A DNA stretch of 64,000 bases from Bacteroidales bacterium (GCA_045600905.1 JAZRYT010000179.1:777-64776), one strand, 5' to 3'. Positions 1,327-39,370 are shown, counted from the stretch's first letter. Notes: generated from the letters alone by a model not told the origin. A program made the numbers and translations.

Positions 1327-1421
1327 TGATTTGCGAACAGTGAGCTACAAACTGGAATTTGAAATGTTGAACTCATTGTTCTTTGGGTATTTGCATTTTA
1401 GTTTTAAAGAAGAATTTTGAT

Positions 1422-10278: not shown

Positions 10279-10290
10279 TGAAAACGGTGT

Positions 10291-10310
10291 AATGTAATGC
10301 AATGTAATGT
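10291..10310 (+). repeat. Pentamer array AATGT AATGC AATGT AATGT
   Basis: Read directly, 13 nt after the parC stop. Confidence 0.8.
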
Positions 10311-10416
10311 AGAGACGGGGCACTGCACCGTCTCTACGGCGAAATCGCCAACAAAATTGGAATTAGACGGTGCAGTGCACCGTCTCTACGGCGAAATCGC
10401 CAATGTATTGGAAAAC
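10311..10416 (+). repeat. REP-like palindromic element, two tandem copies of about 52 bp
   Basis: AGAGACGGGGCACTGCACCGTCTCTACGGCGAAATCGCCAA... followed by TTAGACGGTGCAGTGCACCGTCTCTACGGCGAAATCGCCAATGTATTGGAAAAC. A second small hairpin is GGCGA-AA-TCGCC. Confidence 0.9.
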
Positions 10417-10444
10417 TTGAAACTTGAAACCTGAAACTTGAAAC
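10410..10444 (+). repeat. Heptamer array GGAAAAC TTGAAAC TTGAAAC CTGAAAC TTGAAAC
   Basis: Read directly. The last unit supplies the TTG start of the cytochrome c peroxidase gene. Confidence 0.9.
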
Positions 10445-17000: not shown

Positions 17001-20000
17001 ATATGGCAATTGCACCAAGTCAGAACATTCCGTAGAAACAGTCAGGATGTTGGAGTATTCGGAGCCGCAGTCAGCTTGAACACGGAAATCGTATTCCGTT
17101 CCCGGAAGCAAACCTTGCACCGTCATCGGATGGGCGGAAGCGCTTTCCACGTTCCAAACAGTATCGATAGATAGTTTGTATTCTACATTCCAACCGGTTT
17201 CATTGCCGTTCGGAGTCCAGTCTAAAGTAATTTCCGTTTGTTCAACATCCACAGCTTGGACATTGGAGACAACGAAACAGGAGGGAGCCAATGAGATTTC
17301 CAAATTGTCAATCGTACCAGAGTTGATGGCGCCGCTGCTATTTTTAGGAACATAGAAACAAATACGACCGTTAGATCCTTCGTAATGGTTCAGATAGACC
17401 ACGTGATGGCTGTGGGTTGTTTCCATAACATGTACGGTATCCACCGGAATAAAGGTGGCGGCGGAAGCCGGATTGGAAATCACACCAACGACAACCGTAA
17501 ATTCATTGTATGAAGTTGAATACTTGGCCGCATCGAAGGCGACTTGGAGTGTGTTCACCGGATAGACAACCGTGTCTATGGAAGGCAGGATGGCGTATTG
17601 ATCACCGTAGGTGGAAGCCGTACCAGTGTAGAAACGCAGTGCATTGGGGCCGCTTTGTGCGTATGAGGAACTGTTATAGATAACCGGATAACCCATATAG
17701 GAAGAACCCGTTCCGTCATTCAGATAGTTCCAGCAATTTGGAAGGTTGTTGATTGTACCTGTGGTAACGCCTGTATAGGAATCAAAATTATCAAAATACG
17801 GCAGTTCAGTCATCGGGTTGCATTCAGTCTCGAAAGAGCCCAGCAAATAGGTACTAAAACCAGTGTTGTCCAAACAAATAGCTCTGACGAAAACATCATA
17901 CGAAGTACCGGGTTGCAGACCTGTGAGCAGGTAATCGTTGCTGTTTACCACAGTTGGCGCAACACCTTCCAAAGAGGCACCACTCGTCACGACATAGAGT
18001 TCCCAAGAAGTCTCGACACTACCTTCAGCCCAAGCCACTGTAGCTTCGGTTTGGGAGACATTGCTAATCACCATATCGGTCGGAGCGTCACAAGCGGGCG
18101 CGCGGTCAATCACAAGGTCATCCATATAGACATATCCGTTGCCTTTGAAGGCAATATAATGGCCATTGCCGGAATAGGAAGTCAGCAACGCGGAGACCTG
18201 TTCGTGCGTGCTGATTGTAGAAGGTTTCAACGTATCAATAACGACGAAGCTGCTCAAATCCGTCGGGTCGGTCATAGCGCCAACTAAGAGATAGTAATTC
18301 GCACTGGTCGTATAAATATTGCAATCGACTTGCAGTGTGTTGAGTTGGATGGAAGCGTCAAATTCCGGAAGGACAGCCATACTGAACGTGCCGGCTGTAG
18401 AAGTCAGATTATAGAAATAGAGGCATCCCGGAGGTGTATTCGTGTTAGAGGAATAAACGTAAGGATAAGAAGTGCTCACCAAGCTGGTGGCGCTGGATGC
18501 GTAATAACGGTTCCAGCAGGACGGGAAATAGGCAGAGCCACTTCCGCCGTATGTGTCGAAATTATCCATAAACGGCAGATGCGTCACCGGATCGCAGTCT
18601 GTACGGAACGTATATTTCACATAGTCGGCATTTTCCCCATTGTCGCAAGCGGCCTGTACATAGATGTCATATTCCGTATTGGCCAAGAGGTTCAACAGAT
18701 GAACGACGGTATCGGTTACATATTCAGGAGAAGCGGTTTCCAAATCTACGGAATCCTTCAAGCCATAAACGTAGTACCAAGCGCTTTGGTCGGCACCGGG
18801 TGTCCAAACGACATCGGCGGTATGTGCGGTGACATCAGCGGTATGAACTTCGCTCACGCGCTCACAACTCGGAATATATTGAACAATGATGTCATCCACG
18901 CACATATAGGTGGAAGCAGTAGCCGGGCATCTGAAAGCCACGCAATGTCCATTGCCTTGATAGCCACGAGTGGTCAATTCGAACTCGCGCCAAGTGGAAA
19001 CAGTATCCGGCGTGAAATTACCCAACACTTCAAATGTGCTATAGTCGTTCGGATTGCTCATCAAACCGACTTCGATAAAGTAGGATGCGGAAGTCTTTCT
19101 AAGCCAGAAGCGGATTTGCAGGCTGTCCATTTGGACATCGTCTGCCAAACGAGGAGTGGCAGCGTATGAATAATATGCCGTAGTAGCATAGAAATAAGCA
19201 CTATAGTTTCCAGAATGGGAATAGGTGCTATATGTATAAGGATATTGTGTAGATGAAGAAGTAGCTCTGGTCCAACAAGAAACAAAATTGCCGGCGCCAC
19301 TGCCAGTAGCTGTTTCAAAATCTTCTGTAAACGGAAGACCTACAAACGGACAAAGAGTGTGAATATTATCCACCACCCAAGTACTGGTATCACCACAAAG
19401 AGCGGCAATGCGCACCTGGTAATCCACATCGCTCATAAGGTCATTGATTGTATAAGAAGTCGTATAAACTTCACCAATGTTCGTCCATTCATCAGCATTT
19501 GCCAATCTATATTCTAAAATCCAAGAAGTTTCCTGATAACCTGGAATCCAGGAAAGTTCTACGGCATTGTCGGTTACATCATCCACATGGAGTGTCGGCG
19601 GAGCACAAGAGGTATTAACATTACAATTTCCAAAACGGACATTACTACGGTAGGAAGATGCCGTACCTGCAGCTAACGACATAACATCCAACGGATTATA
19701 AGTCGTAGTCGAAGTATTCGTCAAATAACGAGCCATACCTGTTGCACTATGAGCTTTAAATGTTCTATCTGTAGAAATTGAGCCATTGGACACCTCATTA
19801 TGCGTATAGACTGCCAACAACAGATTGGAGAAACCGTTGTATTGGAAGACAGAGTCTAAAACAATCGTATTCCATCCGTTATCAGAAGCATTGGAGCGGA
19901 AAGTCACAGGACCGGAATATACCAATTGGGCATTGTCCATAGGAACCCAAGTGCTCACATTGGAAGCCATTGTGTTTTCCAAATAGACATCAATGTTCTT

Positions 20001-22790
20001 TGTCACAGATGCGTTACCACCATATTGGAAGGAAATGGTGGCGATTTCCATTTCATCGGAACCCATTTCGGAAGTCGTGAAAAGTTGTTGGGAATAACCA
20101 TATTGATATACCGTATAGAACGGCACGTAAGAGCTAGTGGAAGTACCTGTACCTATGGCCACATCTTCCGGAATCAAACAAACGGTCTGGAAAGAGACGG
20201 TTACCGGTTCTGAATAATCGGAAGCACAATTGGCACTTACACGTACATCGTATTTGGTCATTGGGGAAAGATTGGTAAGAATAAAGGAATTTCCAGAAAC
20301 GAGTTCCGGAGTGGACCAGCTTTCAAGGCCAGCTTCGGAATATTCAACCGAATAGCTTTCTGGCGGAATTACAGTCGGAGTCCAATTAACCTGAGCGCTC
20401 ACGCCATTTATATTGCTGACATTCACATTATTGGGAGCCATACAGGAAGGAACTTCATCCAATACGATATCGTCAATCAAGGCATAACTAGTCGCTTCTG
20501 CGGGAGCATAGAATGCCAAATAGACGGGGTCGTCATATTGTCCGGGCAGCATCACGTTAAAGTCAAACCATTCGCCAGCAGACGGATAGTCGGCTGTGTT
20601 AAGGTCTTTAAGCAGTGTAAATGTGGAGAAATCAGCAGGATCAGTCATCAAGCCTACTTGCAGTCTGCCGTATCCGGCAGTAGTTGCGGTTCTCATAGCC
20701 TTGAAACTGAGCATCAAAGAGCCGGCCCCATATTGTGAAAGATCCAATGCCTGGGAAGCGGCGGCAGAGTAATAAGCGGATGTGGAGTAAAAATAGAGGG
20801 CACCCGTACCGGAGGCGTGGTTCGTAGAATAGACGTAAGGATAATTGGAAGAGTAATTGGTGGTGCGGTCCCAACAATCCGGAATCACACCAGAGGAGAC
20901 TGCTGAAGCAGCGGGAACGCCATCGAAATTCTCCACATAAGGCAATGTGGTGACAGCAACACAACGAGTGGTAAAAGAGGCCACCGTGGACCAATCACTG
21001 ACCTCACTGCCGCAGTTGGCACGCACATACACATCGTAGGTGGTGTTGGCTTCCAAGCCCGTAAACGTGTAGGGATGTTCCGACACGTATTCTACAGCAG
21101 ATTCATCCATCGGGTCTCCTGCTTCCACCACACTGATATCCCAAGCGGATTCATCTCCAGAAAGAGTCCAATCGATGGTAACACTGTTGTCTGTAATTTG
21201 GGAAAAATTCACCCCTGTCGGTTTCAGACAGGAGGAAGCCACGGATATCACGATATCGTCAATATGACCGGCATTATAACTGGTTGATGGAGCCAATGTG
21301 TAGAAGACAATGCGGTTGCCGTTTCCCTCATAGCGGTTCAAGAAAATGGTTCTATCTTGATAAACATTATACACGTCTTCTGATGTAAGGGAAATAGTAT
21401 CGACAGGCGTGATAGTATTGAGAGAGTCACCCATCACACCTACAATGCAGGTAAACGGATAGGAAGATGAGTATCTTCTAACTTTCAAATCAACTTGAAG
21501 CGTATTGATAGGAGTAGTCGCTACATCTATAACAGGTGTGGCTGCATATTGGTTGCCATACGAGGAGGTTCCACTCACATACGAATAAAAACGTAGGCTG
21601 TTCGTTCCACTATTCGAATAGCTTGCACTATTATATATAATAGGATAGCCCGAATAAGATGCGGAAGAATAATTATAGCCCGTATTGTACTGCGTCCAGC
21701 AAGCCAACGGGAGGTTGGTGCTTGATCCTGAAGTAGAGCCAGTATAACTATCAAAATTCTGGATATATGGAAATTGAGAAATCATACCACAAGCAGTGGA
21801 TGCGTAAGCCTTTTTACTGTAATTGGACGTATCGTCAATACCACACACGGCACGCACATAGAAATCGTATGGCGTACTGGGAATGAGGTTGTCTATTGTG
21901 GCAGAAGTATTGAACGCCTGTACCCTGGTGCCGGTTCCTTTTACAAAGCCAGCGGGACCATATTCCACTTCCCATTCCATAGCCGAACCATTTTCCGTCC
22001 AGCTGAGGTCAATGCTTGTTTGGGTTATGGAAGATGTATTTACAATTACAGAAGTGGGTTTAGGACAAGTAATGGTATAGGGTTCGAAAAGATAATAACG
22101 GTTCACATCGGGCCAGTTGCCTATAGGACAAGAGTTTGCAGATTGCCCTTCTTCATAAAAAGAAGCGATATGGTTGTTATCCAACAAGATGATTTCAGTA
22201 TTATCGACGCACATACCAGGCTGACGGTCCACATTGGGCATCATAGACGGAGCGGTAGAGGCATAGACGATTTGGATATTGTTGCTGCCTTCAAAAAGCT
22301 GAATCTGCCATTTCAAGATAGCCGGACGCGAAGTTGTATTATACGTGGAAGCAGCGAACTCAATCACCGCCACGCGGTTGGGTTCCGTCCCCACCACTTC
22401 GTGACGCACATAGTTATTGACATCGCGATAGCCATCACATCCCAGCATATTGATTTTCGGATTGTTGACAACGGAAGCAGTAGCACTAAACGGTGTACTA
22501 TAATTGTTCGTTGCGGTAACTACAGAACCAAAACGGAAGTTACCATCCGAGTTGACGGAGAACTGGGTGTAGTTGTTTCCAGCAAAATTAAACGTAAAGC
22601 CGAGATCCTGCACAGACGATGCGACACCGTCGCCTGTCGTGGCAAGTAGAGAAGTAGTGGTACTTAACGGTATCCATTTGGTGGAATCCGTTCCGGTGGA
22701 GAAATAATAAGCCTCCAAACCTTGAGCTGACACCCGGAGAGTGAAGACACTCAGCAGCAGCACCAGCATTAAGCATAAAGTTTTTTTCAT
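14082..22790 (-). CDS. Giant T9SS-sorted surface protein (2902 aa) with alternating choice-of-anchor-J-like and fibronectin type III modules and a type A C-terminal sorting domain
   Basis: Signal peptide MKKTLCLMLVLLLSVFTLRVSAQG. About 11 Fn3-like units match C(x)PT..V....T..SA.L.W..........W.(V/L)EY. About 9-10 modules begin LPY(T/F)ENFD...P.CW. The C-terminus NVYPNPTSGQFTI...GVYFARILTDKGVVTKRIVKK is a Por_Secre_tail type. Confidence 0.9.
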   Translation of the reverse strand: MKKTLCLMLVLLLSVFTLRVSAQGLEAYYFSTGTDSTKWIPLSTTTSLLATTGDGVASSVQDLGFTFNFAGNNYTQFSVNSDGNFRFGSVVTATNNYSTPFSATASVVNNPKINMLGCDGYRDVNNYVRHEVVGTEPNRVAVIEFAASTYNTTSRPAILKWQIQLFEGSNNIQIVYASTAPSMMPNVDRQPGMCVDNTEIILLDNNHIASFYEEGQSANSCPIGNWPDVNRYYLFEPYTITCPKPTSVIVNTSSITQTSIDLSWTENGSAMEWEVEYGPAGFVKGTGTRVQAFNTSATIDNLIPSTPYDFYVRAVCGIDDTSNYSKKAYASTACGMISQFPYIQNFDSYTGSTSGSSTNLPLACWTQYNTGYNYSSASYSGYPIIYNSASYSNSGTNSLRFYSYVSGTSSYGNQYAATPVIDVATTPINTLQVDLKVRRYSSSYPFTCIVGVMGDSLNTITPVDTISLTSEDVYNVYQDRTIFLNRYEGNGNRIVFYTLAPSTSYNAGHIDDIVISVASSCLKPTGVNFSQITDNSVTIDWTLSGDESAWDISVVEAGDPMDESAVEYVSEHPYTFTGLEANTTYDVYVRANCGSEVSDWSTVASFTTRCVAVTTLPYVENFDGVPAASAVSSGVIPDCWDRTTNYSSNYPYVYSTNHASGTGALYFYSTSAYYSAAASQALDLSQYGAGSLMLSFKAMRTATTAGYGRLQVGLMTDPADFSTFTLLKDLNTADYPSAGEWFDFNVMLPGQYDDPVYLAFYAPAEATSYALIDDIVLDEVPSCMAPNNVNVSNINGVSAQVNWTPTVIPPESYSVEYSEAGLESWSTPELVSGNSFILTNLSPMTKYDVRVSANCASDYSEPVTVSFQTVCLIPEDVAIGTGTSTSSYVPFYTVYQYGYSQQLFTTSEMGSDEMEIATISFQYGGNASVTKNIDVYLENTMASNVSTWVPMDNAQLVYSGPVTFRSNASDNGWNTIVLDSVFQYNGFSNLLLAVYTHNEVSNGSISTDRTFKAHSATGMARYLTNTSTTTYNPLDVMSLAAGTASSYRSNVRFGNCNVNTSCAPPTLHVDDVTDNAVELSWIPGYQETSWILEYRLANADEWTNIGEVYTTSYTINDLMSDVDYQVRIAALCGDTSTWVVDNIHTLCPFVGLPFTEDFETATGSGAGNFVSCWTRATSSSTQYPYTYSTYSHSGNYSAYFYATTAYYSYAATPRLADDVQMDSLQIRFWLRKTSASYFIEVGLMSNPNDYSTFEVLGNFTPDTVSTWREFELTTRGYQGNGHCVAFRCPATASTYMCVDDIIVQYIPSCERVSEVHTADVTAHTADVVWTPGADQSAWYYVYGLKDSVDLETASPEYVTDTVVHLLNLLANTEYDIYVQAACDNGENADYVKYTFRTDCDPVTHLPFMDNFDTYGGSGSAYFPSCWNRYYASSATSLVSTSYPYVYSSNTNTPPGCLYFYNLTSTAGTFSMAVLPEFDASIQLNTLQVDCNIYTTSANYYLLVGAMTDPTDLSSFVVIDTLKPSTISTHEQVSALLTSYSGNGHYIAFKGNGYVYMDDLVIDRAPACDAPTDMVISNVSQTEATVAWAEGSVETSWELYVVTSGASLEGVAPTVVNSNDYLLTGLQPGTSYDVFVRAICLDNTGFSTYLLGSFETECNPMTELPYFDNFDSYTGVTTGTINNLPNCWNYLNDGTGSSYMGYPVIYNSSSYAQSGPNALRFYTGTASTYGDQYAILPSIDTVVYPVNTLQVAFDAAKYSTSYNEFTVVVGVISNPASAATFIPVDTVHVMETTHSHHVVYLNHYEGSNGRICFYVPKNSSGAINSGTIDNLEISLAPSCFVVSNVQAVDVEQTEITLDWTPNGNETGWNVEYKLSIDTVWNVESASAHPMTVQGLLPGTEYDFRVQADCGSEYSNILTVSTECSDLVQLPYTENFDSYTASTSGTVVNLPNCWHQIHLGWTSSTYKAYPIMYNSSSYAQSGSNSLRFYTYTATGDQWAVMRSIDTLTYPIQSLQMTLSAREYSTSYPFELVIGVMSDFRDTSTFVPVQTISPTGTTYEDFTVYFRDYVGGGKYIAMVAKKPNSSYNTGNVDDITISVAPNCFPVSDLVATTVNTNDITVEWTPNGSETDWVVEYRSETDDDWNQVFASTTPSATAQGLTPATYYSFRVKADCGNSEYSAWSDILIARTSCSTMTLPFEESFDSIPGVTTGTVNNLPDCWNNLSGTYSSYAGYPIVYNSSSYAYNGNNSLRFYTGTTTSTDYGDQYAILPPIDVTTNPINTLQLSFKARKYTSTYATFTLVVGVMGNAENAATFVPVDTIEVTDLTYGDYMVYLSSYTGQGNRIALLAPRQTSVAYNEGHVDYIRLETISGCPAPRGLNAVTNTTSSVTLGWIENGSATQWNIEYGPAGFTQGSGTVVPASTNPFTITGLTPSTNYTFYVQAVCGDDETSAWSTDYTVATACDVMSLPYTENFDSYIGTTYSAAGPIPLCWTTTMNNTTYPAPHIVGSGSYCYPHSGANCMVFTSGAAGADAYAVLPSFDRPLNTMHLNFYRRMENATNGTLTVGYVTSSANMSTFVVVATIPSLTTGDTISVDFTGADIPANGMIAFHWNYTTSFYSCCIDDINVTSDAPVNPCNAPTNVAASNVLQNTATITWTAGGDETAWNLQYKAAADADWSSNIAVSNTPSYALNGLTANTAYMVRVQAACDEDNVSNWTDGSFTTLEEDVPTCPAPTNVAASNITKNAAVITWDQEANTASSWTVQYKQTVASAWETATANAMTYTLNGLNDNTQYDVQVIANCDNGLTSDPSQTIQFTTLIDGVNEYVLDAAINVYPNPTSGQFTISNEQCTIYNVEVYDVYGKLINTTKVEDTQVTLDINTCADGVYFARILTDKGVVTKRIVKK

Positions 22791-25207: not shown

Positions 25208-25912
25208 ATGAAACAGCATTTCCCACTTGCCTTCACCATTTTGTTGCTCTTGAGTAATACACTATGGGCACAAAACATTGAAGACACCGCACATTTTAAG
25301 ATCGTCGGCATCATTCACACCGACCAGTTAGGAATCTTGCAAAGTGACGAAATTCGTACCCATTATAAAAGCGAGAATCTCAAAACCATTCCTTCCAGAA
25401 ACGGAGAATATCGTGTTTGGGAAGACAAACAGAATACTGAAGATGTAATATATCGCAAGTTTTTAACCGTTGACCAACAGGATCTTGGACGCGAAAGTAT
25501 GTTAAACGACGATTCCCTCAGACAATTGATATTCGATAAAAAAGCCTATCTCAGTTTTTATTTGGCAACGGACCTATTAAACTATATTGTTGCTTCACCC
25601 CAATGCGATTCAACTTTGGCCAAACGCATCCAGAACACATACGATTTCAGCGAATTTGCATTCAATGGTTGGCGGCATTCTTCCATCCATCCTAAAAAAA
25701 GAATTCCGCATTCTGAATCTGTCTCCTTAAACAAAAAATATTCGTATGTCTCGTATGCCGAGTCCGATTTCCTTATTGTTGAAACAACATACGAACAATA
25801 TTTGGTGTCACATCCTCAATATGAATTTGAAGGATTTGTTTTATCAATCTGGCTTCACGGAGACGACGACGAAGATCGGCCCATCCGAATTGCCATTCCG
25901 CTCAATGACTAA
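25208..25912 (+). CDS. Hypothetical secreted protein
   Basis: 234 aa with signal peptide MKQHFPLAFTILLLLSNTLWAQN. A TATTTTTG box lies 19 nt upstream. No family recognised. Confidence 0.55.
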   Translation: MKQHFPLAFTILLLLSNTLWAQNIEDTAHFKIVGIIHTDQLGILQSDEIRTHYKSENLKTIPSRNGEYRVWEDKQNTEDVIYRKFLTVDQQDLGRESMLNDDSLRQLIFDKKAYLSFYLATDLLNYIVASPQCDSTLAKRIQNTYDFSEFAFNGWRHSSIHPKKRIPHSESVSLNKKYSYVSYAESDFLIVETTYEQYLVSHPQYEFEGFVLSIWLHGDDDEDRPIRIAIPLND

Positions 25913-26021: not shown

Positions 26022-26029
26022 TATCTTTG
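26022..26029 (+). promoter_or_regulatory. -7 box TATCTTTG
   Basis: 55 nt upstream of the ATG at 26084. Confidence 0.5.
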
Positions 26030-26083
26030 CAAGCTTTGTTGCAAACCAACATCTTACAACGTATCTCATTAAATATCAGGACA

Positions 26084-27127
26084 ATGAAAAGAATTTTCGT
26101 TTTGTTTTTGTGTTTGATTTCCTTTAGTGTTTTCGCACAAACAACATCTTCAGACACCAATCGAACCGATGCGCAGGGACGCAAGCAAGGAGTTTGGAAA
26201 AAATATGAGAAAGGCACGCTCGTCTATGAGGGCCAATTCAAAGACAATGTGCCATACGGCATCTTCAAATATTATCACACCAACGGAAAACTGAAGAGCA
26301 CGACCGAATTCATTCAGGGCGTACATAAAGTTAAAACCGTGATTTACCACGAGAACGGGCACAAAGCATCAGAAGGCGTTTTCATTGACCAAATCAAAGA
26401 CGGCATCTGGAACTACTACTCCAATTCCGACAAACTCATCAAAATCGAAAATTACGCAAACGGCAAGGAGACAGGAAATTGGAAGACATACTCCAACGAA
26501 AGCGGTGTGCTATTGGAAGAAAAGAACTACTACAACGGCAAGCTCAGCGGCACGCACACAACCTACTACACCAATGGCGAAATCAGTTTGGAGGAGAACT
26601 ACATTGATGGCAAACTGAACGGAACGGCCACAGCCTATTATCCTAAAGACCATCACATTTCAAGCGCCGGAAATTATCACAACGGCATTAGAATTGGCAC
26701 GTGGGACTTTTATGATGTTAATGGCAAGAAGCGCACCACTTACGAATACAAAGAGAACCACACGATGAGCACCTACGTTTATCTGTATCAAAACGGCGCA
26801 GGGCAGAAAATAAACCAGGACATCATCGCCTATTTTATGAAAAACGGCGACAAGTCTGTTGCCGTCCTCCGTTCCGGAAAGAAGCTCAGCTTAGACGAAT
26901 CCATTGACGACATCGCCTTGTGGGTGGATTTCCTCGTTTTCACTCGTATATCACCCAGCATGATTGCCGCAAACGACGCCATCGTCAGAATCAAAGAAGT
27001 TGAAGACGCAGACAACGATGCAATCACCATCAAGCTCAGGCCGTCACCAGGCGAAGAAATTTACTCTGAAGGAACGGATGCCAAGTTGGTTAAAGCGTTG
27101 TTCAATACAAAGATGCCGAAAGAATAA
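26084..27127 (+). CDS. Secreted MORN/YwqK-type repeat protein with an unassigned C-terminal domain
   Basis: The ATG at 26084 gives signal peptide MKRIFVLFLCLISFSVFAQ. It has tandem repeats of about 23 aa (G.W..Y..NGKL..E..Y..GK..G). The C-terminal 100 aa or so is distinct. A TATCTTTG box lies at 26022. Confidence 0.65.
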   Translation: MKRIFVLFLCLISFSVFAQTTSSDTNRTDAQGRKQGVWKKYEKGTLVYEGQFKDNVPYGIFKYYHTNGKLKSTTEFIQGVHKVKTVIYHENGHKASEGVFIDQIKDGIWNYYSNSDKLIKIENYANGKETGNWKTYSNESGVLLEEKNYYNGKLSGTHTTYYTNGEISLEENYIDGKLNGTATAYYPKDHHISSAGNYHNGIRIGTWDFYDVNGKKRTTYEYKENHTMSTYVYLYQNGAGQKINQDIIAYFMKNGDKSVAVLRSGKKLSLDESIDDIALWVDFLVFTRISPSMIAANDAIVRIKEVEDADNDAITIKLRPSPGEEIYSEGTDAKLVKALFNTKMPKE

Positions 27128-27179: not shown

Positions 27180-28271
27180 ATGAAAAGATTATTTTTATTG
27201 TTGGCAGCCTGTCTGCCTATATTCGCGTGGGCACAAAAAGAATACACCTTCACCACTTATCGCAATGTGGTCAACAACGGCTACAACTTCTGGATATCGC
27301 TGCCGGACGACTATGAGGTCAAGAAGAACGAAATGCCCGTTGTTGTCTTCCTTCACGGGAACAGCTTGTGCGGCTCCGACCTCAACAGAGTGCGTCGTTA
27401 TGGCTGTTTGGATGCCATTTCGATGGGGCGTGACATTGACGCTATGGTTATCGCACCGCAAAACCCCGGTGGTCCCTGGAATCCCACACGCATTATGAAT
27501 GTGCTCAACTGGGTGCAGGAACATTTCGCGATGGACACCAACCGCATTTACGTTATTGGAATGAGTCTGGGCGGCTACGGCACATTCGACTTTGTGGCCA
27601 CGTATCCCGAAAAATTCGCAGCCGCAATGGCACTCTGTGGCGGCAGCTCACGCAAAGATTTCTGCGGTTTGAACAAGGTTCCGCTTTGGATCATCCACGG
27701 AACCGCCGACAGAGACGTTTCCATCAGCCAATCCGAGCGCATTGTGAACGCTATGAAGAACTGCGGTCCCACCAACTTGCTGCGCTTTGACAGATTCAAA
27801 GGCATCAACCACTCTCAATTAGCTAAAATGTTCTATTTGCCAGAGACTTACGAATGGCTGCTCAGCCACTCCAAGGCCGACTCCTCCCGACACGTCAATA
27901 TGGATGTGAATATCACGGTTGCCTCTTTGGGACAAGCTTACCAAAATATCAATCGCACGGCCAACACCATAAAAGTTGTAGATAAATACAACACCACCGT
28001 ACCCCAAAACAAGGATATTGACACGGCCAATCTTTCTGATGAGGCACTTGCCTCCCTCGCCAACGCGACTGTTCCGGAAAAGAAAACGCCCGCACCTGCA
28101 ACCACCCCAAAACCGGCGCCCAGCAAACCTGCCGTCCATACGGTTCGCAGCGGAGACACACTATCCGCCATAGCACGAAGATACCATACCACGGTGGAAA
28201 AGCTCTGCAAAATCAATCACATAAAAGAAACCAGTATTCTCTCTTTGGGGCAAAAAATCAAATTGCGCTAA
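27180..28271 (+). CDS. Alpha/beta-hydrolase (esterase/peptidase-like) fused to a C-terminal LysM domain
   Basis: Signal peptide; nucleophile-elbow-like GMSLGG; HGTADRDV; a Pro/Thr-rich linker; and a LysM signature HTVRSGDTLSAIARRYHTTVEKLCKINHIK...LGQKIKL. Confidence 0.7.
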   Translation: MKRLFLLLAACLPIFAWAQKEYTFTTYRNVVNNGYNFWISLPDDYEVKKNEMPVVVFLHGNSLCGSDLNRVRRYGCLDAISMGRDIDAMVIAPQNPGGPWNPTRIMNVLNWVQEHFAMDTNRIYVIGMSLGGYGTFDFVATYPEKFAAAMALCGGSSRKDFCGLNKVPLWIIHGTADRDVSISQSERIVNAMKNCGPTNLLRFDRFKGINHSQLAKMFYLPETYEWLLSHSKADSSRHVNMDVNITVASLGQAYQNINRTANTIKVVDKYNTTVPQNKDIDTANLSDEALASLANATVPEKKTPAPATTPKPAPSKPAVHTVRSGDTLSAIARRYHTTVEKLCKINHIKETSILSLGQKIKLR

Positions 28272-28279
28272 AAGGCAAT

Positions 28280-30331
28280 CTACGGGACCAAAGTCACCGT
28301 TCCGGTTTTTTCATACAAAGATCTATCAGGCAATGTGTAAGTGATTTTATACACATAGACGTCAAAAGGAGCGCGTCTCCCCTTTATCGTACCATCCCAG
28401 CCCTCATTCGGATTGCGGGTCATAAAAATCATATCTCCCGTTCTGGCGTAAACGGCGAAGAAATAATTTTCCGATGACACAAAAGTATTCACAGGCATAA
28501 ACACATTGTTAATCGACAAACGTGGCGAAAAAGCATTGGGAACGTATGTGTTCGGCATCTGTTGTAAATCCACCACATTGGAATTGCTCATATCACTGAA
28601 TCCGTATTCATCTTCTATCGGTTGTGCCACCACGTAATACTTGAATTTGGAACCTCCTTCAAATAAGGAAGACACGTCATCGTGATAAGCATTATAGGCA
28701 TACGGCGTAACCTCGCCTGGAAGAACTATGAATTCGATATCGGATTCCTGCTTCCGCATCACGCGATAATGCTCCACATCGGCTGCCGATTGGCCGTAAT
28801 TGTTCCAATTGAGGACATTCTCTTGAGCGGAAGTGGCTTCTCCCTGTAAGAATACGCTATGCGCCACCTTGGAATAACCGCTGTTGGTATGGCAGCTGTT
28901 TTCTACAAAGGTCTGATAATAATAGATTCTTTTGCTAAAATCCGCCGTATTATCCTGAAATTCGTACTCGCTATCATTTTGATAGGGCAACGTCTGCAAT
29001 GTGGTGAAATCAGTACCGTTTTCACTGCGTTGCAAGGTGATGCTATTGAATGGCAATGTATCGCCACTGGTATGAACTACGATTTGAATATGGTCGTTGT
29101 CAATAACGGAAACAGAACGAATATGCGTAATATCGTCAGAGGCACTTGCCTCCATCGTGAAATCTATGCGGTTACTGGACGCGGTGATGGTTTCATCAGC
29201 ATTATGCACACGGACAAACACTCGGTAATCGGTTTCGTTTTCCAGATTTTCTATCGTAAAGGAATGCGTGTTGGCATTGACGGTGGCAATACTTTGGTAG
29301 GACGTGCCGTGATCCGTACTCAAAAAGATTTCAAAACTGCCGACTCCGCCCGTGAGATTCGGATAGGTGCTCCAATTGATGGAAGCGCTTTTCTCGCAAG
29401 CATTAAGAGTGCCTTGATACAGGTGCAGGCCACATTGTTCATCAGCAACCATCTGCGAGCTGTTCACACAGGAATCCAGCACGGCAATTCGATAGCATCT
29501 CTCTCCGCCATTCGGGTCAATCCAATAGGTGGCATTGTAAATAGTATCTATGCTAATCCATCCATCTCCTTGAAAATAAGCGATAAAGCCATACATCATA
29601 GGATCCGTCGCGTGAAATCCCAACGCCACACGGTTGTTCTCGTCAAAAGAAACGCTATCCAAAACAGGTATGTTGGGTTGTGTCCTATCCACCAACGTAA
29701 CCGTAGCAATGGAAGTACGGAAAATGCAGTTGTTGGTAGCCGTTTCACTAATCGGATAAGTATTGGTGATACCCACAGAATAGGAAATATCCCGATAGCA
29801 CACATCTGAAGTGTCGGTATAGTTATTTACCGTATTGGGGACTGTTGCAAAGGGCAAATTCGAGAACTGGTCCTCGAAATTGTATTTTTTATAGATGAAG
29901 TAGGAATCACCCCACGTATCATCCAAAGAACCAGAGGAAGGGGCATCCCAGGAAATCAAAGCGTATGCGCTATCTGCACTTGGTTCCACGTGAATGGCCG
30001 GCATTTGCAATGTATTGGAAGTCCACAAGTTACCATCCTCATCCTTTGCTTTGATATAGCAAGAATAGGTATTCGCCTCTGTGACGTGAATATCTCGTCC
30101 ACCATAATTGCAGAGCGTGTAACCACTACCGGCCACAAACGTCTCTACGTAAGCATTATTTACAAAAAACTGATATTCAACAAAATGAGTGCAATCGTCC
30201 GTATTACTCCACGTAACGTGCAATGTTGTTCCGTTATTTAACTGCAAACACTGCAGTGTGGGAGGATCGTATGCCCACACAACATTTGCCAGAGATGTGA
30301 AAAGCAAAAATGTATAGAGTATTTTTCTCAT
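28280..30331 (-). CDS. Multi-Fn3-like surface protein with a type B T9SS (gliding-motility-associated, CHU_C-type) C-terminal domain
   Basis: 683 aa with a signal peptide. The C-terminus VPNAFSPR...FAVYARTGDMIF...EGWDGTIKGRRAPFDVYVYKITY...TGTVTLVP matches the TIGR04131-type pattern. Last gene of the sigma-factor operon. Confidence 0.75.
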   Translation of the reverse strand: MRKILYTFLLFTSLANVVWAYDPPTLQCLQLNNGTTLHVTWSNTDDCTHFVEYQFFVNNAYVETFVAGSGYTLCNYGGRDIHVTEANTYSCYIKAKDEDGNLWTSNTLQMPAIHVEPSADSAYALISWDAPSSGSLDDTWGDSYFIYKKYNFEDQFSNLPFATVPNTVNNYTDTSDVCYRDISYSVGITNTYPISETATNNCIFRTSIATVTLVDRTQPNIPVLDSVSFDENNRVALGFHATDPMMYGFIAYFQGDGWISIDTIYNATYWIDPNGGERCYRIAVLDSCVNSSQMVADEQCGLHLYQGTLNACEKSASINWSTYPNLTGGVGSFEIFLSTDHGTSYQSIATVNANTHSFTIENLENETDYRVFVRVHNADETITASSNRIDFTMEASASDDITHIRSVSVIDNDHIQIVVHTSGDTLPFNSITLQRSENGTDFTTLQTLPYQNDSEYEFQDNTADFSKRIYYYQTFVENSCHTNSGYSKVAHSVFLQGEATSAQENVLNWNNYGQSAADVEHYRVMRKQESDIEFIVLPGEVTPYAYNAYHDDVSSLFEGGSKFKYYVVAQPIEDEYGFSDMSNSNVVDLQQMPNTYVPNAFSPRLSINNVFMPVNTFVSSENYFFAVYARTGDMIFMTRNPNEGWDGTIKGRRAPFDVYVYKITYTLPDRSLYEKTGTVTLVP

Positions 30332-30353
30332 ATAATTATCCTAATAAAAAAAA

Positions 30354-31634
30354 TCAACAATTGCCACCAACGATGATTTGGGTAAATTTATTGTGTGGAT
30401 AATATTTTTTTGCCAAAAATAAAATCTGTTCGGCCGTAATATCTCTAACTATCTGAATCATAGCATGGAATTCCGACTCATCCAATTGATGATGATGCCA
30501 ATAAGCCAATCGTTTGAGGTATGAGACCGAGTTTTCAACATCTCTAAGTAGCTCGCCGAGGATATAATTTCGCACAGAATCGAGTTCTTCTTGGGGTACG
30601 AGTTCAAGTCTCAAGCGCTCTAATTCTTCAAAACAAGCCTCCATAGAAGCCTTAGTATTTTGAATGTTCACATCGCTATTGATAATGAAGATGGACTGGT
30701 TTCCGAAATAGACAGAGCCGGAAGAGATGCCGTAGGTATATCCGTTTTTCTCGCGGAGATTCTGCATAAGGCGTGACCCGAAATAGCCTCCTGTAATGGT
30801 GGAAAGAATGGAAAATTCGCGTCGTTCGGCATCAGAATAGGCCATCATCGGCTGGCACAACGTGATGGATGACTGCACACTGTTCTCCATCTTTTCAAAA
30901 ACCAAAGGTGTGGTATCTGAAGGCAACGGGAGATTTTCAATATTGGCAATAGCAACGCCATTGGGAATCTGCTCGAAAATCTCACAAACAAAGGATTCCA
31001 GCTCGGCATCAAAATTTCCAGTGGCAAAAAGACTGATGTTTTCCGCGCAGAAGGTCCTTTGATGAAAAGCCATCATCTGGGGAATGGTGACGGCCTGCAG
31101 GTTTTCCTTCGTCGAGAACTGTCCGGCCGTCTTGTCGTCACCGAACATCGCATGCAGCATCAATTGCGTGTTGCGCACATCGGTTTTTTTGGAATTGTAT
31201 TCCAAATCCTTTATCTTCAAATTTTTATAAACGGACAAATTCGTCTCGCGATAAGCAGGATGAGACATAAAGTCCATAATCACGGGCAGGATTTGCTTCA
31301 CATTCTTTTTCGGGACAGAAATACTCACCACCGTCTTATCCAGCGATTCGGAAACGGTATAATGTGTGCCGTAGAAATCCAGCAAATCCGCTATCTCATT
31401 GGAAGAATGGTCTTTCGAACTTTCTTTCAACAGCGCGTACGTGAATAAGGCGATATGTTTCTGATTCTCGTGCAAAATGCCGACATTCAATTGAATCAGG
31501 AAATGTATCAGATCCAAATTCTCATTATCAATAATGAAAAAAGGAATCTGGTTTAGAAGGGTCAGCTGGCGAGGCTTTGCCAACTGAATTTCAGAAATCG
31601 GATGTTGATCAGGGGTGATAGAACGATTTAGCAT
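30354..31634 (-). CDS. M16 (insulinase/pitrilysin) family homolog lacking the HxxEH zinc motif, so probably non-catalytic
   Basis: Two-lobed M16-like layout. The expected HxxEH position reads IALFTYALLKES. ATG at 31634; the track start at 31676 is GTG. Confidence 0.6.
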   Translation of the reverse strand: MLNRSITPDQHPISEIQLAKPRQLTLLNQIPFFIIDNENLDLIHFLIQLNVGILHENQKHIALFTYALLKESSKDHSSNEIADLLDFYGTHYTVSESLDKTVVSISVPKKNVKQILPVIMDFMSHPAYRETNLSVYKNLKIKDLEYNSKKTDVRNTQLMLHAMFGDDKTAGQFSTKENLQAVTIPQMMAFHQRTFCAENISLFATGNFDAELESFVCEIFEQIPNGVAIANIENLPLPSDTTPLVFEKMENSVQSSITLCQPMMAYSDAERREFSILSTITGGYFGSRLMQNLREKNGYTYGISSGSVYFGNQSIFIINSDVNIQNTKASMEACFEELERLRLELVPQEELDSVRNYILGELLRDVENSVSYLKRLAYWHHHQLDESEFHAMIQIVRDITAEQILFLAKKYYPHNKFTQIIVGGNC

Positions 31635-31650
31635 AATAAGACAGCAAAAA

Positions 31651-32508
31651 TTATCGAATGAGGGTGACTTGGCCACGACGAGTGGATTGTTTTCCCTCCG
31701 GATTAGTGAATTTCACAATATAATTATAGACCTCACTGGGTAAATCTCGGCCGCGGAAAGAGCCATCCCAACCAAGCCTCATATCCTTATTGAGAAACAC
31801 CAGTTCACCTTTTCTCGAATAGATAGCGATTTCGAATGAGAGCGGCGTGAAATCAGCTTCAACTTTAAACAGGTCATTGACACCATCTCCATTGGGAGTA
31901 AAGGCATTAGGGATAAAAAGTTGGTAATTATTGGTTGGTGTTTCCGGTTCCTCAGATGAATGGGCATTATCATCTTGACTTTTGACAGAGGAAACAAAGA
32001 CCGATTTTGCCGGTTTGCTAACTGAAGAAGGAACTGAAGTCACATCTGGTGCGCGTTTTTCAACCTTGGCAGCTATCGGAGCGGACGGCGCAGAAGGTTT
32101 GGAAGCAGCGGGGGCAACCGCCGGTACAATATCCTCAAGTACAGGCTGAGACGGGAAATTTGTCGTCGTCGGTACTGCCTCTTTTTGCATCGGCAGTGAT
32201 TCAGAAGTACGAACTTGAGTCACTTCTTCTGATTTTGCTTGGGCCACAGGTTCCGTTTGACGAACCGTAACCTCTTGAGGAACAACAGTTTTATCCGGCT
32301 CTTCTACAGACTTCTTAGGAGAAGAAGCAAGCAGAACCGTCGCCACCACCACAGCCACTACTACAGCTGGAACTACACCCAACAGGCATATTCGCTGCCA
32401 GCGTTTGCGCCGATTAAAACGCACGAGCTGCGCGTCGTTCACAATCGTTTCCCACGCAGATTCCTCTACTGGAAGCTTATAATTTTTAACAGAGTCTTTT
32501 AATTCCAT
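31651..32508 (-). CDS. Single-pass membrane protein (anti-sigma-like position) with a Pro/Ser/Val-rich linker and a type B T9SS C-terminal domain
   Basis: ATG at 32508, 22 nt after the sigma gene stop. About 40 aa N-terminal, then TM ICLLGVVPAVVVAVVVATVLLA, a low-complexity linker of about 170 aa, and the C-terminus IPNAFTPNGDGVNDLF...GWDGSFRGRDLPSEVYNYIV...RRGQVTLIR. Confidence 0.7.
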   Translation of the reverse strand: MELKDSVKNYKLPVEESAWETIVNDAQLVRFNRRKRWQRICLLGVVPAVVVAVVVATVLLASSPKKSVEEPDKTVVPQEVTVRQTEPVAQAKSEEVTQVRTSESLPMQKEAVPTTTNFPSQPVLEDIVPAVAPAASKPSAPSAPIAAKVEKRAPDVTSVPSSVSKPAKSVFVSSVKSQDDNAHSSEEPETPTNNYQLFIPNAFTPNGDGVNDLFKVEADFTPLSFEIAIYSRKGELVFLNKDMRLGWDGSFRGRDLPSEVYNYIVKFTNPEGKQSTRRGQVTLIR

Positions 32509-32530
32509 ATTCTTATTACGTATTCTGGTT

Positions 32531-33088
32531 TCAAATATTAAATTCTTCGTCATTAAGGTATTCCCTGATTTTTTTCTGCAGTGCCAATTTGGCACGATGG
32601 ACAATTACTCTAACGTTACTTGTAGCAACGCCCATCATGTCCGATATCTGTTTTTGCGAATAACCGTCCAACACAAACATATTAAACATTATGCGGGAAG
32701 TGTGGGGAAGTGTGTTGACAAACTCCATCAATTTCTCAAAAGAAAGCACTTCCGGGAAAAAAGGTTTCGTAATATCCCTTATCGACTCTCTGTCTTCCAA
32801 TGTAACCATAGGATAACGCACCTTTCTTCTATAATAATCTATCGACTTATTGACTGAAATCCTATAAATCCAACCACCAAGAGAGTCGATGTGATCAAAT
32901 TCGTTGAAATGAGTAAGAATAAAGACAAAAATGTCATGAAAAAGGTCTTTTTCTTCCTCAGAGTTCAGGGCATATCGATGGCACACACCTTGGACAATGG
33001 GACCATATTCAAGATATAACTGCTTCTGGTATTGACTTTTACCAGACAAACAGCCTTTAACGATTATTTTTTCTTCCTCAGTCAACAT
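32531..33088 (-). CDS. ECF-type RNA polymerase sigma-70 family factor
   Basis: Region 2-like FHDIFVFILTHFNEFD and region 4 HTH SQKQISDMMGVATSNVRVIVHRAKLALQKKI. ATG at 33088; the track start at 33139 is TTG. Confidence 0.8.
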   Translation of the reverse strand: MLTEEEKIIVKGCLSGKSQYQKQLYLEYGPIVQGVCHRYALNSEEEKDLFHDIFVFILTHFNEFDHIDSLGGWIYRISVNKSIDYYRRKVRYPMVTLEDRESIRDITKPFFPEVLSFEKLMEFVNTLPHTSRIMFNMFVLDGYSQKQISDMMGVATSNVRVIVHRAKLALQKKIREYLNDEEFNI

Positions 33089-33181
33089 ATAATTCAACAA
33101 TCTGCTTAACGAAAAATACCCCCAAAACGTTACACTCAAAATTCATTTTTTTTCGTTTTTTTGCAGAAATTTTTTTCACGG

Positions 33182-33790
33182 ATGAAACAGCTGCAAAAAT
33201 CGTATTTTTTAGAGAATGACGTGTTAGCCATAACTCGCAATCTATTAGGCAAATACGTTTTCACATGCAAAGACGGGCAGATTTCAGGCGGCATCATTTC
33301 AGAAGTTGAGGCCTACAACGGAATTGACGACCGGGCCTCACACGCTTTCGGAGGAAGAAGAACGAACCGCAATGAAATGATGTACCACGAAGGAGGGGTT
33401 GTCTATATGTATCTTTGCTACGGGATGCACGCGATGTTGAATTTCGTAACCAACCAGGAAGGCATTCCTGACGCCGTGCTCATTCGCGGCATCATCCCCA
33501 CTCACGGAGAAGAACTGATGTTACAACGAACCGGCAAGACGCACATTTCTCCCGACATTTCCAATGGACCGGGGAAAGTCAGCAAAGCCCTAGGACTTAC
33601 TGTATCAGACAACGGGCTTTCTCTCCTTTCAGAAACCATCTGGTTGGAAGACAGAGGTCTGCACATCCCGGACAATCAAATCGACATCACCCCCCGCATC
33701 GGTGTTGATTATGCCGGAGAAGATGCCCGGCTGCCCTATCGATTTGTCTTAAACAAAAATTTCGAAATTAAAAATTCCTTATATGTCTAG
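33182..33790 (+). CDS. DNA-3-methyladenine glycosylase (MPG/AAG family)
   Basis: LLGKYVF...GGIISEVEAYNGIDDRASHAFGGRRT.RNEMMY..GG..YMYLCYGMH matches the PF02245-type pattern. ATG at 33182. Confidence 0.8.
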   Translation: MKQLQKSYFLENDVLAITRNLLGKYVFTCKDGQISGGIISEVEAYNGIDDRASHAFGGRRTNRNEMMYHEGGVVYMYLCYGMHAMLNFVTNQEGIPDAVLIRGIIPTHGEELMLQRTGKTHISPDISNGPGKVSKALGLTVSDNGLSLLSETIWLEDRGLHIPDNQIDITPRIGVDYAGEDARLPYRFVLNKNFEIKNSLYV

Positions 33791-37822: not shown

Positions 37823-39370
37823 ATGAAAAGCTTTAAGAAATTACAAATCGGAATTCCGACAGTTCTATTATTGTTGTTTATCCAATGCTCATTTTTACAG
37901 GCACAAACAGTTATTTACCAAGAAAATTGCGGAACGCCTAGCGCCAACACCTTGATTCAAAACTATCACGGATGGCAAGACACCAGCGTTTCATACTATG
38001 GGAACGGAACTTGTGATGTGCGCACCTCATCCGCATCCACCGGCTACGGCCAAGCTTCGGGCGGAGGGAACATCATGATAAACGATTCTCTAAAATGGTT
38101 CCTGATATCAAGAATCAACACATCAGCATTCTCGGATGTCAGACTATATTGCGGATTACGGAAGACGACAGCTGAAAACGGCAGCAACTTTGTGGTGGAG
38201 GCATCCACGGACAGTACAAGTTGGACCCGTCTTCAAATGGCGGACTCTCTGCCCACAGGCACAGGCACATCCGGCTGGTTCAGAGTGCAATACCCTTCCG
38301 TACCGACCTGCTCAACCCTATTCATCCGTTTTTCAAATCTTGCCAACGTCGATTACCGTCTAGATGACATCACGCTCGTTTCTGGTGAAGAAACGCAACT
38401 TGAGACAGTTGCCAAACCGACGTTCACACCGGGAGGCGGCACATACTACGAGCCGCAGACCGTAACCATTTCATCTACAACGGAAAATGTCCATATCTAT
38501 TTCACACTTGACGGGACCACACCGACCGAAACCTCAAACAGCTATCTCGGTCCCATAACCATCAACAACAGCGTAACCCTCAAAGCCATAGCGTTGCGTT
38601 CCGGCATGTATGACAGCGATGTGGCCAGTGCATCATACGTTGTATTGGACACAAATGCCCTTTTGGAACTTCCCTTCGACATCAGCACCAACAGTGACAA
38701 TGAGCATTTGGACATCTGTCAAATTCCCGGATTCAGGGGATTTCATCTGGGCAGCTCATACGCTGACGGTTCCGTGAAATTCGAGGCTTCGCAAGCCACC
38801 AAAGCAATGCTTGTCGCCCACTTGGACAGTTCGCCCGACCGTCTCATTTTCGAATTAAAAGGCAAGAATGGCGGTTCCAATCCGGCTGCCTACGAAGGAA
38901 TAGAAATGCTTGTCAGCGAATCCAGCGACAACCAGCATTGGCACGATCTGGCCATTATCTCAGAAAACGAAATAGCGACAGAGAACTTTGTGAGATTTTC
39001 TAATTTCAGGCTCCAATCCGACACCAGATTCATCCGATGGAAGCTCCTGTCCGCCACAAAAGGCAACACACAGTTGAACAACATCGCAATCACTAAAAAG
39101 ACTGAATCTGAAGAAGATAGCACGCCCGTCGCAAATCATATTTGGCAAAATCTACGGATATTTCCGAACCCTATGAACGACATCATCTATCTCGATTTTC
39201 CAGAGCAGACAATCCTCACTATAACATTGTACAGCATCGAAGGCCGAAAATTGACCCAATTGTCTGGTCATAGAGACCATATTTCTTTAACCGATATGCC
39301 TGACGGCATCTACATTTTGGAAATTCAAACTTCTAAAGGATTATTGAGGGAAAAAATCATCAAACAATAG
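37823..39370 (+). CDS. T9SS type A cargo protein with a chitobiase/beta-hexosaminidase C-terminal-like (CHB_HEX_C) domain
   Basis: Signal peptide; FTPGGGTYYEPQTVTISS...IYFTLDGTTPT..S..Y.GPITI...TLKAIA pattern; C-terminus IFPNPMNDIIYLDF...GIYILEIQTSKGLLREKIIKQ. Confidence 0.75.
   Translation: MKSFKKLQIGIPTVLLLLFIQCSFLQAQTVIYQENCGTPSANTLIQNYHGWQDTSVSYYGNGTCDVRTSSASTGYGQASGGGNIMINDSLKWFLISRINTSAFSDVRLYCGLRKTTAENGSNFVVEASTDSTSWTRLQMADSLPTGTGTSGWFRVQYPSVPTCSTLFIRFSNLANVDYRLDDITLVSGEETQLETVAKPTFTPGGGTYYEPQTVTISSTTENVHIYFTLDGTTPTETSNSYLGPITINNSVTLKAIALRSGMYDSDVASASYVVLDTNALLELPFDISTNSDNEHLDICQIPGFRGFHLGSSYADGSVKFEASQATKAMLVAHLDSSPDRLIFELKGKNGGSNPAAYEGIEMLVSESSDNQHWHDLAIISENEIATENFVRFSNFRLQSDTRFIRWKLLSATKGNTQLNNIAITKKTESEEDSTPVANHIWQNLRIFPNPMNDIIYLDFPEQTILTITLYSIEGRKLTQLSGHRDHISLTDMPDGIYILEIQTSKGLLREKIIKQ

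Follow-up and report, generated by a model that had tools for sequence, protein, structure and literature searches.

FlgM, the soluble anti-sigma factor of sigma-28, is exported whole through the flagellar type III export apparatus. [quoted passage not shown] Matching of expression to type IX secretion in the Bacteroidota is known only from PorXY-SigP and PorA, in this one species. Here we describe a four-gene operon at positions 28280-33088 (minus strand) of a 64,000-nucleotide (nt) stretch of DNA from a gut Bacteroidales bacterium (GCA_045600905.1, JAZRYT010000179.1:777-64776), the whole of which is here named the window. The operon encodes an extracytoplasmic function (ECF) sigma factor (gene 1), a single-pass membrane protein that ends in a type B T9SS CTD (gene 2), an M16B peptidase homologue (gene 3) and a secreted protein of several beta-sandwich domains (gene 4). 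Our preferred reading, to which we give an even chance, is that this is an autoregulated ECF sigma/anti-sigma operon, in which gene 2 encodes the anti-sigma factor and its type IX secretion signal serves as the extracytoplasmic sensing end.

An earlier note on this DNA, made from the sequence alone, had described the four genes as a possible self-regulating or secretion-sensing unit. That description is still the best reading; to it are added a conserved ECF-type promoter and the identification of gene 2 as a probable anti-sigma factor, which was the central point that the note had missed.

Results

The sigma factor and the adjacent membrane protein

Gene 1 (32531-33088, minus strand) encodes a 185-amino acid (aa) ECF sigma factor, with matches to Sigma70_r2 (PF04542, 40.1 bits), Sigma70_r4_2 (PF08281, 42.2 bits) and TIGR02937 (74.1 bits, cut-off 42.9), in agreement with the region 2 and region 4 motifs first noticed in the sequence. 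It contains regions 2 and 4 only, and its length falls within the ~170-200 aa of the ECF (group 4) sigma-70 factors. No NCBIfam equivalog or subfamily model was matched by gene 1, all scores being far under the cut-offs (for example, 56.6 against 130 for sigma_PG0214).

Gene 2 (31651-32508, minus strand) encodes a 285-aa protein made of four parts. Residues 1-39 (32392-32508, minus strand) form a cytoplasmic N-terminal segment, putatively sigma-binding, with the motif Y-x-x-P-x(5)-W-x-x-I. A basic cluster, RFNRRKRWQR, precedes the sole transmembrane (TM) helix, which was assigned from the sequence as the hydrophobic run I40-A61 (ICLLGVVPAVVVAVVVATVLLA; residues 40-61, 32326-32391, minus strand). 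Residues 62-191 (31936-32325, minus strand) are rich in P, S, T, A and E and correspond to a disordered periplasmic tether, and residues 192-285 with the stop codon (31651-31935, minus strand) are the type B T9SS CTD. In the AlphaFold2 (AF2) model, helices were found at residues 26-44 and 46-61, with a pLDDT of ~60 over residues 1-61, followed by disorder at residues 63-191 (pLDDT < 50) and a beta-sandwich at residues 192-285 (pLDDT > 90).

The type B CTD of gene 2 had been proposed from a short sequence pattern, and it was recovered by both profiles for this domain, over their curated cut-offs: CHU_C/PF13585 with 61.9 bits (cut-off 27) and TIGR04131 with 60.4 bits (cut-off 35). The matches span residues 198-285 of 285, that is, the extreme C-terminus. 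NCBIfam matches to GltJ and CU044_5270 were disregarded, as they involve low-complexity or TM stretches with scores far under the cut-offs.

To define the family, a profile of the 70 N-terminal residues of gene 2 was searched against 1.84 billion representatives, and 165 proteins were found. Among the 146 that were scanned, CHU_C was present in 88 and OMP_b-brl_2 in 13. The Y-x-x-P-x(5)-W-x-x-I motif is kept in all gene 2 homologues, and no member of the family departs from the CTD hallmarks PNAFTP, N..F, GWDG, Y.Y and G..TLIR. The family statistics cover 94 CTD-bearing members (n = 94 for each of the values that follow). The segment before the TM helix has 22-56 aa and contains 4.65 lysine plus arginine residues, against 1.44 after the helix, indicating an N-in topology. 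The end of the CTD lies 0-2 residues from the C-terminus. The linker is not conserved in sequence and has 121-224 aa, with a median of 142 and none below 121; we estimate that at least 121 disordered residues would reach ~40 nm if extended, which is enough to cross the periplasm.

Being N-in, single-pass and encoded directly after the sigma gene, the gene 2 product has the placement and topology of an anti-sigma factor. In a Pfam search with a threshold of E = 10, the N-terminal 70 aa of nine family members gave nothing beyond noise, and no recognised anti-sigma domain (zf-HC2, RskA, FecR_N and similar) was detected in them. This last result could favour a different explanation, namely that gene 2 is not an anti-sigma factor at all and encodes a small T9SS cargo or surface protein with a long signal peptide, merely located beside a sigma gene. 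Such a protein would likewise have a canonical CTD, and databases give the named family members no other annotation than 'gliding motility-associated C-terminal domain-containing protein'. Nevertheless, we consider this explanation very improbable. The conserved N-terminal segment leads into a TM-like run of ~22 residues with no conserved AxA signal-peptidase site, and only a low-complexity, disordered linker lies between this run and the CTD, with no passenger domain; for these reasons gene 2 was rejected as an ordinary T9SS cargo. Moreover, an ECF sigma gene lies upstream in every locus examined, with stop and start codons often overlapping or 3-4 nt apart, which is not the case for ordinary cargo with type B CTDs.

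A more serious contender, although in our view still rather unlikely, is that the locus is an ordinary ECF sigma/anti-sigma pair in which the CTD-derived beta-sandwich is a generic sensor with no link to the T9SS, and in which the M16 and Fn3 genes are passengers. Structural comparison points both ways: in a Foldseek search with the gene 2 model, rank 3 was held by a substrate CTD from a T9SS translocon complex (chain 8glk_D, TM-score 0.63), as suits an intact secretion signal, and generic PKD/Ig domains scored similarly against the CTD model. Anti-sigma factors bear many unrelated sensor domains, and the N-terminal motif is itself also fused to OMP_b-brl_2 and to other C-terminal regions. The M16-cargo pair, moreover, appears to predate the sigma pair (see below). 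The sequence of the CTD itself points the other way. Every TIGR04131 hallmark residue is kept and the scores are well over the curated cut-offs, and the invariable position of the domain at the very C-terminus is needed by a secretion signal but not by a generic sensor. The minimum tether length is also maintained, and the cargo that would be regulated in the four-gene clade bears a CTD of this kind too, type B-like in gene 4.

Some proteins carry variants of the gene 2 architecture. Between 2 and 12 tandem copies of the motif F/Y-x-x-x-P-x(4,5)-W-x-x-I precede a TM helix in P0363, P0364, P0373, P0378 and P0415, which were taken to be from Bacteroidota. Among them, P0373 (locus L175:543-2390) has six tandem copies of the N-terminal motif and a TM helix, lacks CHU_C, and is encoded directly after an ECF sigma gene. 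The motif thus tracks sigma adjacency regardless of the C-terminal domain, as would be expected of a sigma-binding element. A gene 2-like subgroup, composed of P0365, P0379 and P0125 (L093:7001-8071), has proteins of ~356-375 aa with linkers of 187-224 aa and an extra conserved Cys-containing segment (SRDT.VCRNS..L.L.V.NA..V.W) just before the CTD, which may be a small added domain.

Conservation of the four-gene order and of its component pairs

The earlier note had recommended a neighbourhood search for the combination of a sigma factor, a TM protein with a type B CTD and an M16 homologue, and this combination was indeed recovered. The order sigma, CHU_C protein, M16 and fn3/CHU_C protein is conserved in at least 13 loci of uncultured Bacteroidales, down to ~40% identity in the M16 protein (L081-L085, L087-L090, L001-L003, L095 and L096). 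M16 homologues at 97, 70, 59, 46 and 44% identity lie in the same four-gene order, with tight or overlapping spacing. L001-L003 are, among the matches listed, the GTDB species representatives with this order (40-43% identity), while L095 and L096 are metagenome contigs. The sources that are described are horse faeces (L002) or unspecified metagenome-assembled genomes. The flanks of the four-gene loci differ, with mpg in most and RNase HII in L089. Given the same order across these loci, the four-gene arrangement is not due to chance.

The first two genes also occur without the last two. A sigma gene with a gene 2-type gene, and no M16 or Fn3 gene nearby, was found in six independent loci; the two-gene loci are L091-L094, L097, L104 and L111. 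Three of the proteins, P0129, P0135 and P0125, which in the alignment share 25-27% identity with gene 2, are encoded directly 3' of an ECF sigma gene and lie 34, 4 and 3 nt from it, respectively. The gaps between both genes range from 3 to 34 nt in L091-L094, for which gene calls are recorded, and the ORFs (open reading frames) abut or overlap in L097, L104 and L111, which are metagenome loci with matching pairing and protein architecture. Gene 1 shares 29-39% identity with the sigma factors of these modules. A gene 2-type gene adjoins a sigma gene in every locus examined.

A scan of metagenomes with the gene 2 alignment recovered mostly generic proteins with type B CTDs, and served as a background control. 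Among the best 80 metagenome loci encoding such CTDs, an ECF sigma gene was found directly upstream only of short TM-CTD proteins, and never of ordinary type B cargo. The sigma gene and gene 2 are therefore a two-gene module in their own right.

The last two genes form a second pair. Among the matches listed from 76 distant Bacteroidota loci, a gene 4-like gene was found directly after the inactive M16 gene in 10-11, and these M16-cargo loci, which lack the sigma gene, span Flavobacteriales, Chitinophagales and other Bacteroidales. In one of them (L016), the protein encoded 3' of the M16 gene shares 29% identity with gene 4 along its whole length of 680 residues (BLASTP). Gene 4-like genes directly 3' of an M16B gene were seen in L006, L008, L016, L020, L025, L029, L040, L057, L066 and L080 (at about 9260-11400 in most). 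The gene 4-like gene is preceded by a pair of active and inactive M16 genes, but by the inactive type alone in L020 and L057. As far as we found, this linkage between M16B and gene 4-like cargo is unreported in the literature searched.

From these distributions, the pair of M16 and Fn3/type B CTD genes appears to be older than its linkage to the sigma factor, and the four-gene operon unites, in one lineage, two gene pairs that are older than itself; the four-gene clade seems to have placed the M16-cargo pair under the control of the sigma factor. The idea of a compact four-gene operon was thus correct in that it is a conserved unit with one conserved ECF-type promoter, and it needs amendment in that the unit is divisible into two separate pairs.

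An ECF-type promoter upstream of the sigma gene

A candidate ECF-type promoter, TGTAAC-N17-CGTT, is located at 33108-33134 (minus strand) and ends 19 nt before the ATG of the sigma gene. The pattern (T/G)G(C/T)AA(C/T)-N16-17-CGT(C/T) was found 5' of the sigma gene in 11 of the 11 four-gene loci checked, its distance to the start codon being 10-24 nt in ten loci and 51 nt in L095; by a rough estimate, ~0.01 chance matches are expected per 120-nt upstream region. A stricter pattern, TG[CT]AAC-N16-17-CGT[CT], has two matches in the window against 0.9 expected by chance, and the second match lies within gene 4, in antisense orientation. The usual ECF signature combines AAC in the -35 element with CGT in the -10 element, and the conservation of both upstream of the sigma gene suggests that the operon is autoregulated by its own sigma factor. 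A CGT-box motif has been linked to an ECF system and T9SS genes in Flavobacterium psychrophilum (PMC9723704).

In the two-gene modules, the region 5' of the sigma genes of L091 and L092 contains GGAAAC or TGCAAC-N16-GTGTC, with GTGTC as the -10 element, and that of L093 contains TGTAAC, a 12-nt spacer and then CGTC. These candidate elements resemble the motif of the four-gene loci without being identical to it. A generic sigma-70 promoter scan gave 15 candidates against 11.8 ± 3.4 expected from shuffled sequence, and a terminator scan gave 6 against 5.2 ± 2.3; none of these were judged informative.

The M16B homologue and the secreted Fn3 protein

Gene 3 (30354-31634, minus strand) encodes a 426-aa protein with both M16 domains, Peptidase_M16_C (PF05193, 95.6 bits) and Peptidase_M16 (PF00675, 30.5 bits), both over the cut-offs. 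The position of the zinc motif reads FTYAL and not HxxEH, as the earlier note had pointed out, and F(T/A)YxL is present in 19 of 19 aligned homologues. The top PDB profile matches were 3hdi and 3amj_B, full-length and with E = 1e-28 to 1e-30; the latter is named 'zinc peptidase inactive subunit'. The term pseudo-peptidase, used for gene 3 in the initial description, is accurate as to the absence of HxxEH; however, the protein is of an ordinary type, a non-catalytic M16B subunit, as its match to 3amj_B and the HxxEH partners of its relatives indicate. A decayed enzyme unique to this locus was excluded, since the inactive-subunit type is conserved. Gene 3 has no signal peptide, and its product should therefore be cytoplasmic.

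A profile scan of GTDB genomes for M16 proteins listed mostly distant matches, at 25-31% identity. Among the matches listed, in the same 76 distant loci, the gene 3 homologue is usually preceded by a second M16 gene, in which HxxEH is present and a signal peptide is absent (4 of 4 inspected). No second M16 gene was found within the 64-kb window or in the flanks of L081-L090.

Gene 4 (28280-30331, minus strand) encodes a 683-aa secreted protein of several beta-sandwich domains. Its signal peptide (MRKILYTFLLFTSLANVVWA, followed by YD) was read from the sequence, and the AF2 model has a helix at residues 2-18 and beta domains thereafter. The description of this protein as multi-Fn3 is supported by an fn3 match of 30 bits and by the model, which is all-beta (mean pLDDT 85), with about six Fn3/Ig-like beta-sandwich domains and the CTD at residues 597-683. 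The type B assignment of the CTD was less clear-cut than had been suggested, as the scores were just under both curated cut-offs (CHU_C 26.7, cut-off 27; TIGR04131 28.6, cut-off 35; E about 1e-6). It is nevertheless supported by the orthologues in L085 and L087, for which CHU_C is recorded as an unmarked match with E at most 1e-5, and by a hidden Markov model built from gene 2 CTDs, which matches gene 4 residues 599-685 with 68 bits. The CTDs of genes 2 and 4 are 32% identical, and that of gene 4 is here termed type B-like. The orthologue group of gene 4 comprises more than 120 full-length clusters of 640-700 aa, at 41-97% identity. A Foldseek search with the gene 4 model returned generic Fn3/Ig chains only, with no functional lead. 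A 316-aa ORF antisense within gene 4 (28859-29809, plus strand) is almost certainly a shadow ORF.

M16 peptidasomes break down short unstructured peptides. This raises another explanation, in which the M16 subunit and the cargo are the core of the locus: an M16B pair would process peptides arising from export of the Fn3 protein or from breakdown of the anti-sigma factor, and the sigma pair would tune expression. Signal peptides and the released N-terminal fragment of the anti-sigma factor are example substrates, and a remnant of 40-60 aa fits the size range of M16 enzymes; that a cytoplasmic M16B enzyme clears such peptides is speculation. The recurrence of an inactive M16 gene followed by an Fn3/type B CTD gene in distant loci of three orders is in line with this explanation. 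On the other hand, the operon and the window lack a catalytic partner, and an M16 homologue is kept in Bacteroides (L043 and others), a genus that is not known to have a T9SS. The six loci with a sigma/gene 2 pair and no nearby M16 gene, together with the lack of any M16-T9SS link in the literature searched, also make it improbable.

T9SS context and neighbouring genes

The window is unusually rich in T9SS cargo. Four genes encode proteins with type A CTDs (Por_Secre_tail): a protein of 2902 aa in which fn3 domains number 10 or more (14082-22790, minus strand), a CHB_HEX_C_1 protein (37823-39370, plus strand), a 1049-aa Amidase_2 and CUB protein (41883-45032, minus strand) and a protein of 2294 aa that contains Ig_7 ('CHU_C associated') domains (57062-63946, minus strand). 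These four cargo genes indicate that the organism has a T9SS.

The absence of a porP/sprF-like gene next to the operon had been noted, and presented as unusual. No PorP/SprF family match was found among the scanned window ORFs of at least 150 aa. The absence is however no anomaly and was rejected as such, given that 3 of the 12 type B substrates of Flavobacterium johnsoniae are likewise 'orphans', served by a distant shuttle (PMC12618676).

Regarding its layout, the operon consists of four minus-strand ORFs separated by gaps of 22, 16 and 22 nt, and its coordinates, ATG starts and spacing were found in the sequence as first described. It is bounded upstream, again as described, by the divergent mpg gene (33161-33790, plus strand; Pur_DNA_glyco, E = 1e-55). 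At the other end, genes for a MORN-repeat protein (26027-27127, plus strand) and for an esterase/S9-like hydrolase with a C-terminal LysM domain (27180-28271, plus strand) converge on the operon, and 8 nt separate the stop codons. Both neighbours are retained in L081-L084, and more loosely in L085. Window ORFs of 180-234 aa with no Pfam match are located at 25208-25912 (plus strand), 1383-1925 (plus strand) and 56300-56974 (minus strand); the first of them is syntenic with a 234-aa gene of L081.

Discussion

The two halves of the proposed reading differ in strength. That the locus is an autoregulated operon of a sigma and an anti-sigma factor is likely, whereas engagement by the T9SS as the signal is possible but falls short of probable. 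In the proposed mechanism, the N-terminal segment of gene 2 would hold the sigma factor inactive at the inner membrane, and the tethered CTD would reach the T9SS translocon in the outer membrane or a PorP/SprF-type shuttle; alternatively, the CTD could act as a periplasmic ligand domain. Engagement of the CTD, or its loss, would make the anti-sigma factor more or less stable, through pulling or regulated proteolysis for instance, and the sigma factor would be released. The more specific version, in which the translocon or shuttle engages the tethered type B CTD and pulling or triggered proteolysis frees the sigma factor, is somewhat doubtful. Once free, the sigma factor would transcribe its own operon, which in the four-gene clade includes the non-catalytic M16B subunit and the type B-like cargo, and the supply of cargo could thereby be matched to secretion capacity.

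Several points weigh against this reading. We infer from sequence both the binding of the sigma factor by gene 2 and the recognition, by the T9SS or a shuttle, of a CTD that stays attached to the inner membrane. The N-terminal segment of gene 2 is short, is modelled by AF2 at a pLDDT of only ~60 and belongs to no known Pfam anti-sigma family, and the Ig-like beta-sandwich could be a generic binding domain. The promoter elements of the two-gene modules are only partly similar to the motif of the four-gene loci. Every member of the family comes from uncultured genomes. Finally, the M16-cargo linkage exists elsewhere with no sigma gene, and may thus reveal little of the signal to which the sigma/anti-sigma pair responds.

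Should the T9SS link be real, the ~94 representatives of this family, with a probable anti-sigma factor that bears a secretion signal, would provide a simpler and more direct link between expression and type IX secretion than PorXY-SigP and PorA. Direct gating of a sigma factor by type IX secretion activity would then be seen for the first time, a T9SS CTD would serve in signalling beyond its role as an export tag, and the link would extend a FlgM-like logic across two membranes by means of a disordered tether of fixed minimum length. The constraint on tether length leads to a measurable prediction, namely a tether long enough to span the periplasm. The motif at the N-terminus of gene 2 is unannotated, has no Pfam match, is associated with sigma factors and is apparently specific to Bacteroidota. 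If the T9SS link is false, the locus would still be a new ECF/anti-sigma subtype, of modest interest.

Comparison with known systems

Several components of the locus are already known and ordinary, namely orphan type B cargo, ECF/anti-sigma pairs and inactive M16B subunits. The view that the gene combination is not a described module stands, as the open-access literature searched contained no description of it, nor of an anti-sigma-type protein with a T9SS CTD as its extracytoplasmic end.

For gene 3, the counterparts are the M16B heterodimers of Sphingomonas (Sph2681/Sph2682, PDB 3amj) and Bacillus halodurans (3hdi), to which it aligns over its full length and with which it shares the inactive-subunit-like loss of HxxEH. 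Unlike these heterodimers and most other Bacteroidota loci, gene 3 has no adjacent catalytic partner gene and lies under a candidate ECF promoter. The CTDs of genes 2 and 4 resemble those of the orphan type B substrates of F. johnsoniae (PMC12618676; PMC9143113), in that they are of type B (gene 2) or type B-like (gene 4) and have no adjacent porP/sprF gene. Gene 2 differs from those substrates in having neither a signal peptide nor a passenger domain, and linkage to a sigma factor or an M16 gene, as observed at the gene 2/gene 4 locus, is not reported for them.

With sigma/anti-sigma pairs of the RseA-sigmaE and FecR-FecI types, the locus shares a sigma gene followed by a gene for a single-pass N-in membrane protein, an AAC/CGT promoter that is putatively autoregulated, and an extracytoplasmic sensor. 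The differences are that the cytoplasmic part of gene 2 has ~40 aa and matches no Pfam anti-sigma family, and that a secretion signal, borne on a long disordered tether, is its predicted sensor, whereas the sensor of the RseA and FecR types is a folded ligand-binding domain or one coupled to a TonB box.

The closest analogue is the PorA-CTD/PorXY-SigP pathway (PMC12152298, PMC7712824), in which a T9SS CTD is a periplasmic signal that ends in the activation of an ECF sigma factor. PorA is a separate and normally secreted cargo with a type A CTD, and its effect is relayed by PorY, a histidine kinase, and PorX, a response regulator; in contrast, the CTD of gene 2 is of type B and is by nature permanently fused to a sigma-adjacent membrane protein, with no two-component system in the unit. 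The logic of FlgM and sigma-28 is also similar, since an anti-sigma factor would carry the export signal of a secretion machine and the competence of that machine could set sigma activity. Unlike FlgM, gene 2 has an inner-membrane anchor, from which release would need pulling or proteolysis, and the secretion system and the sigma family are different ones.

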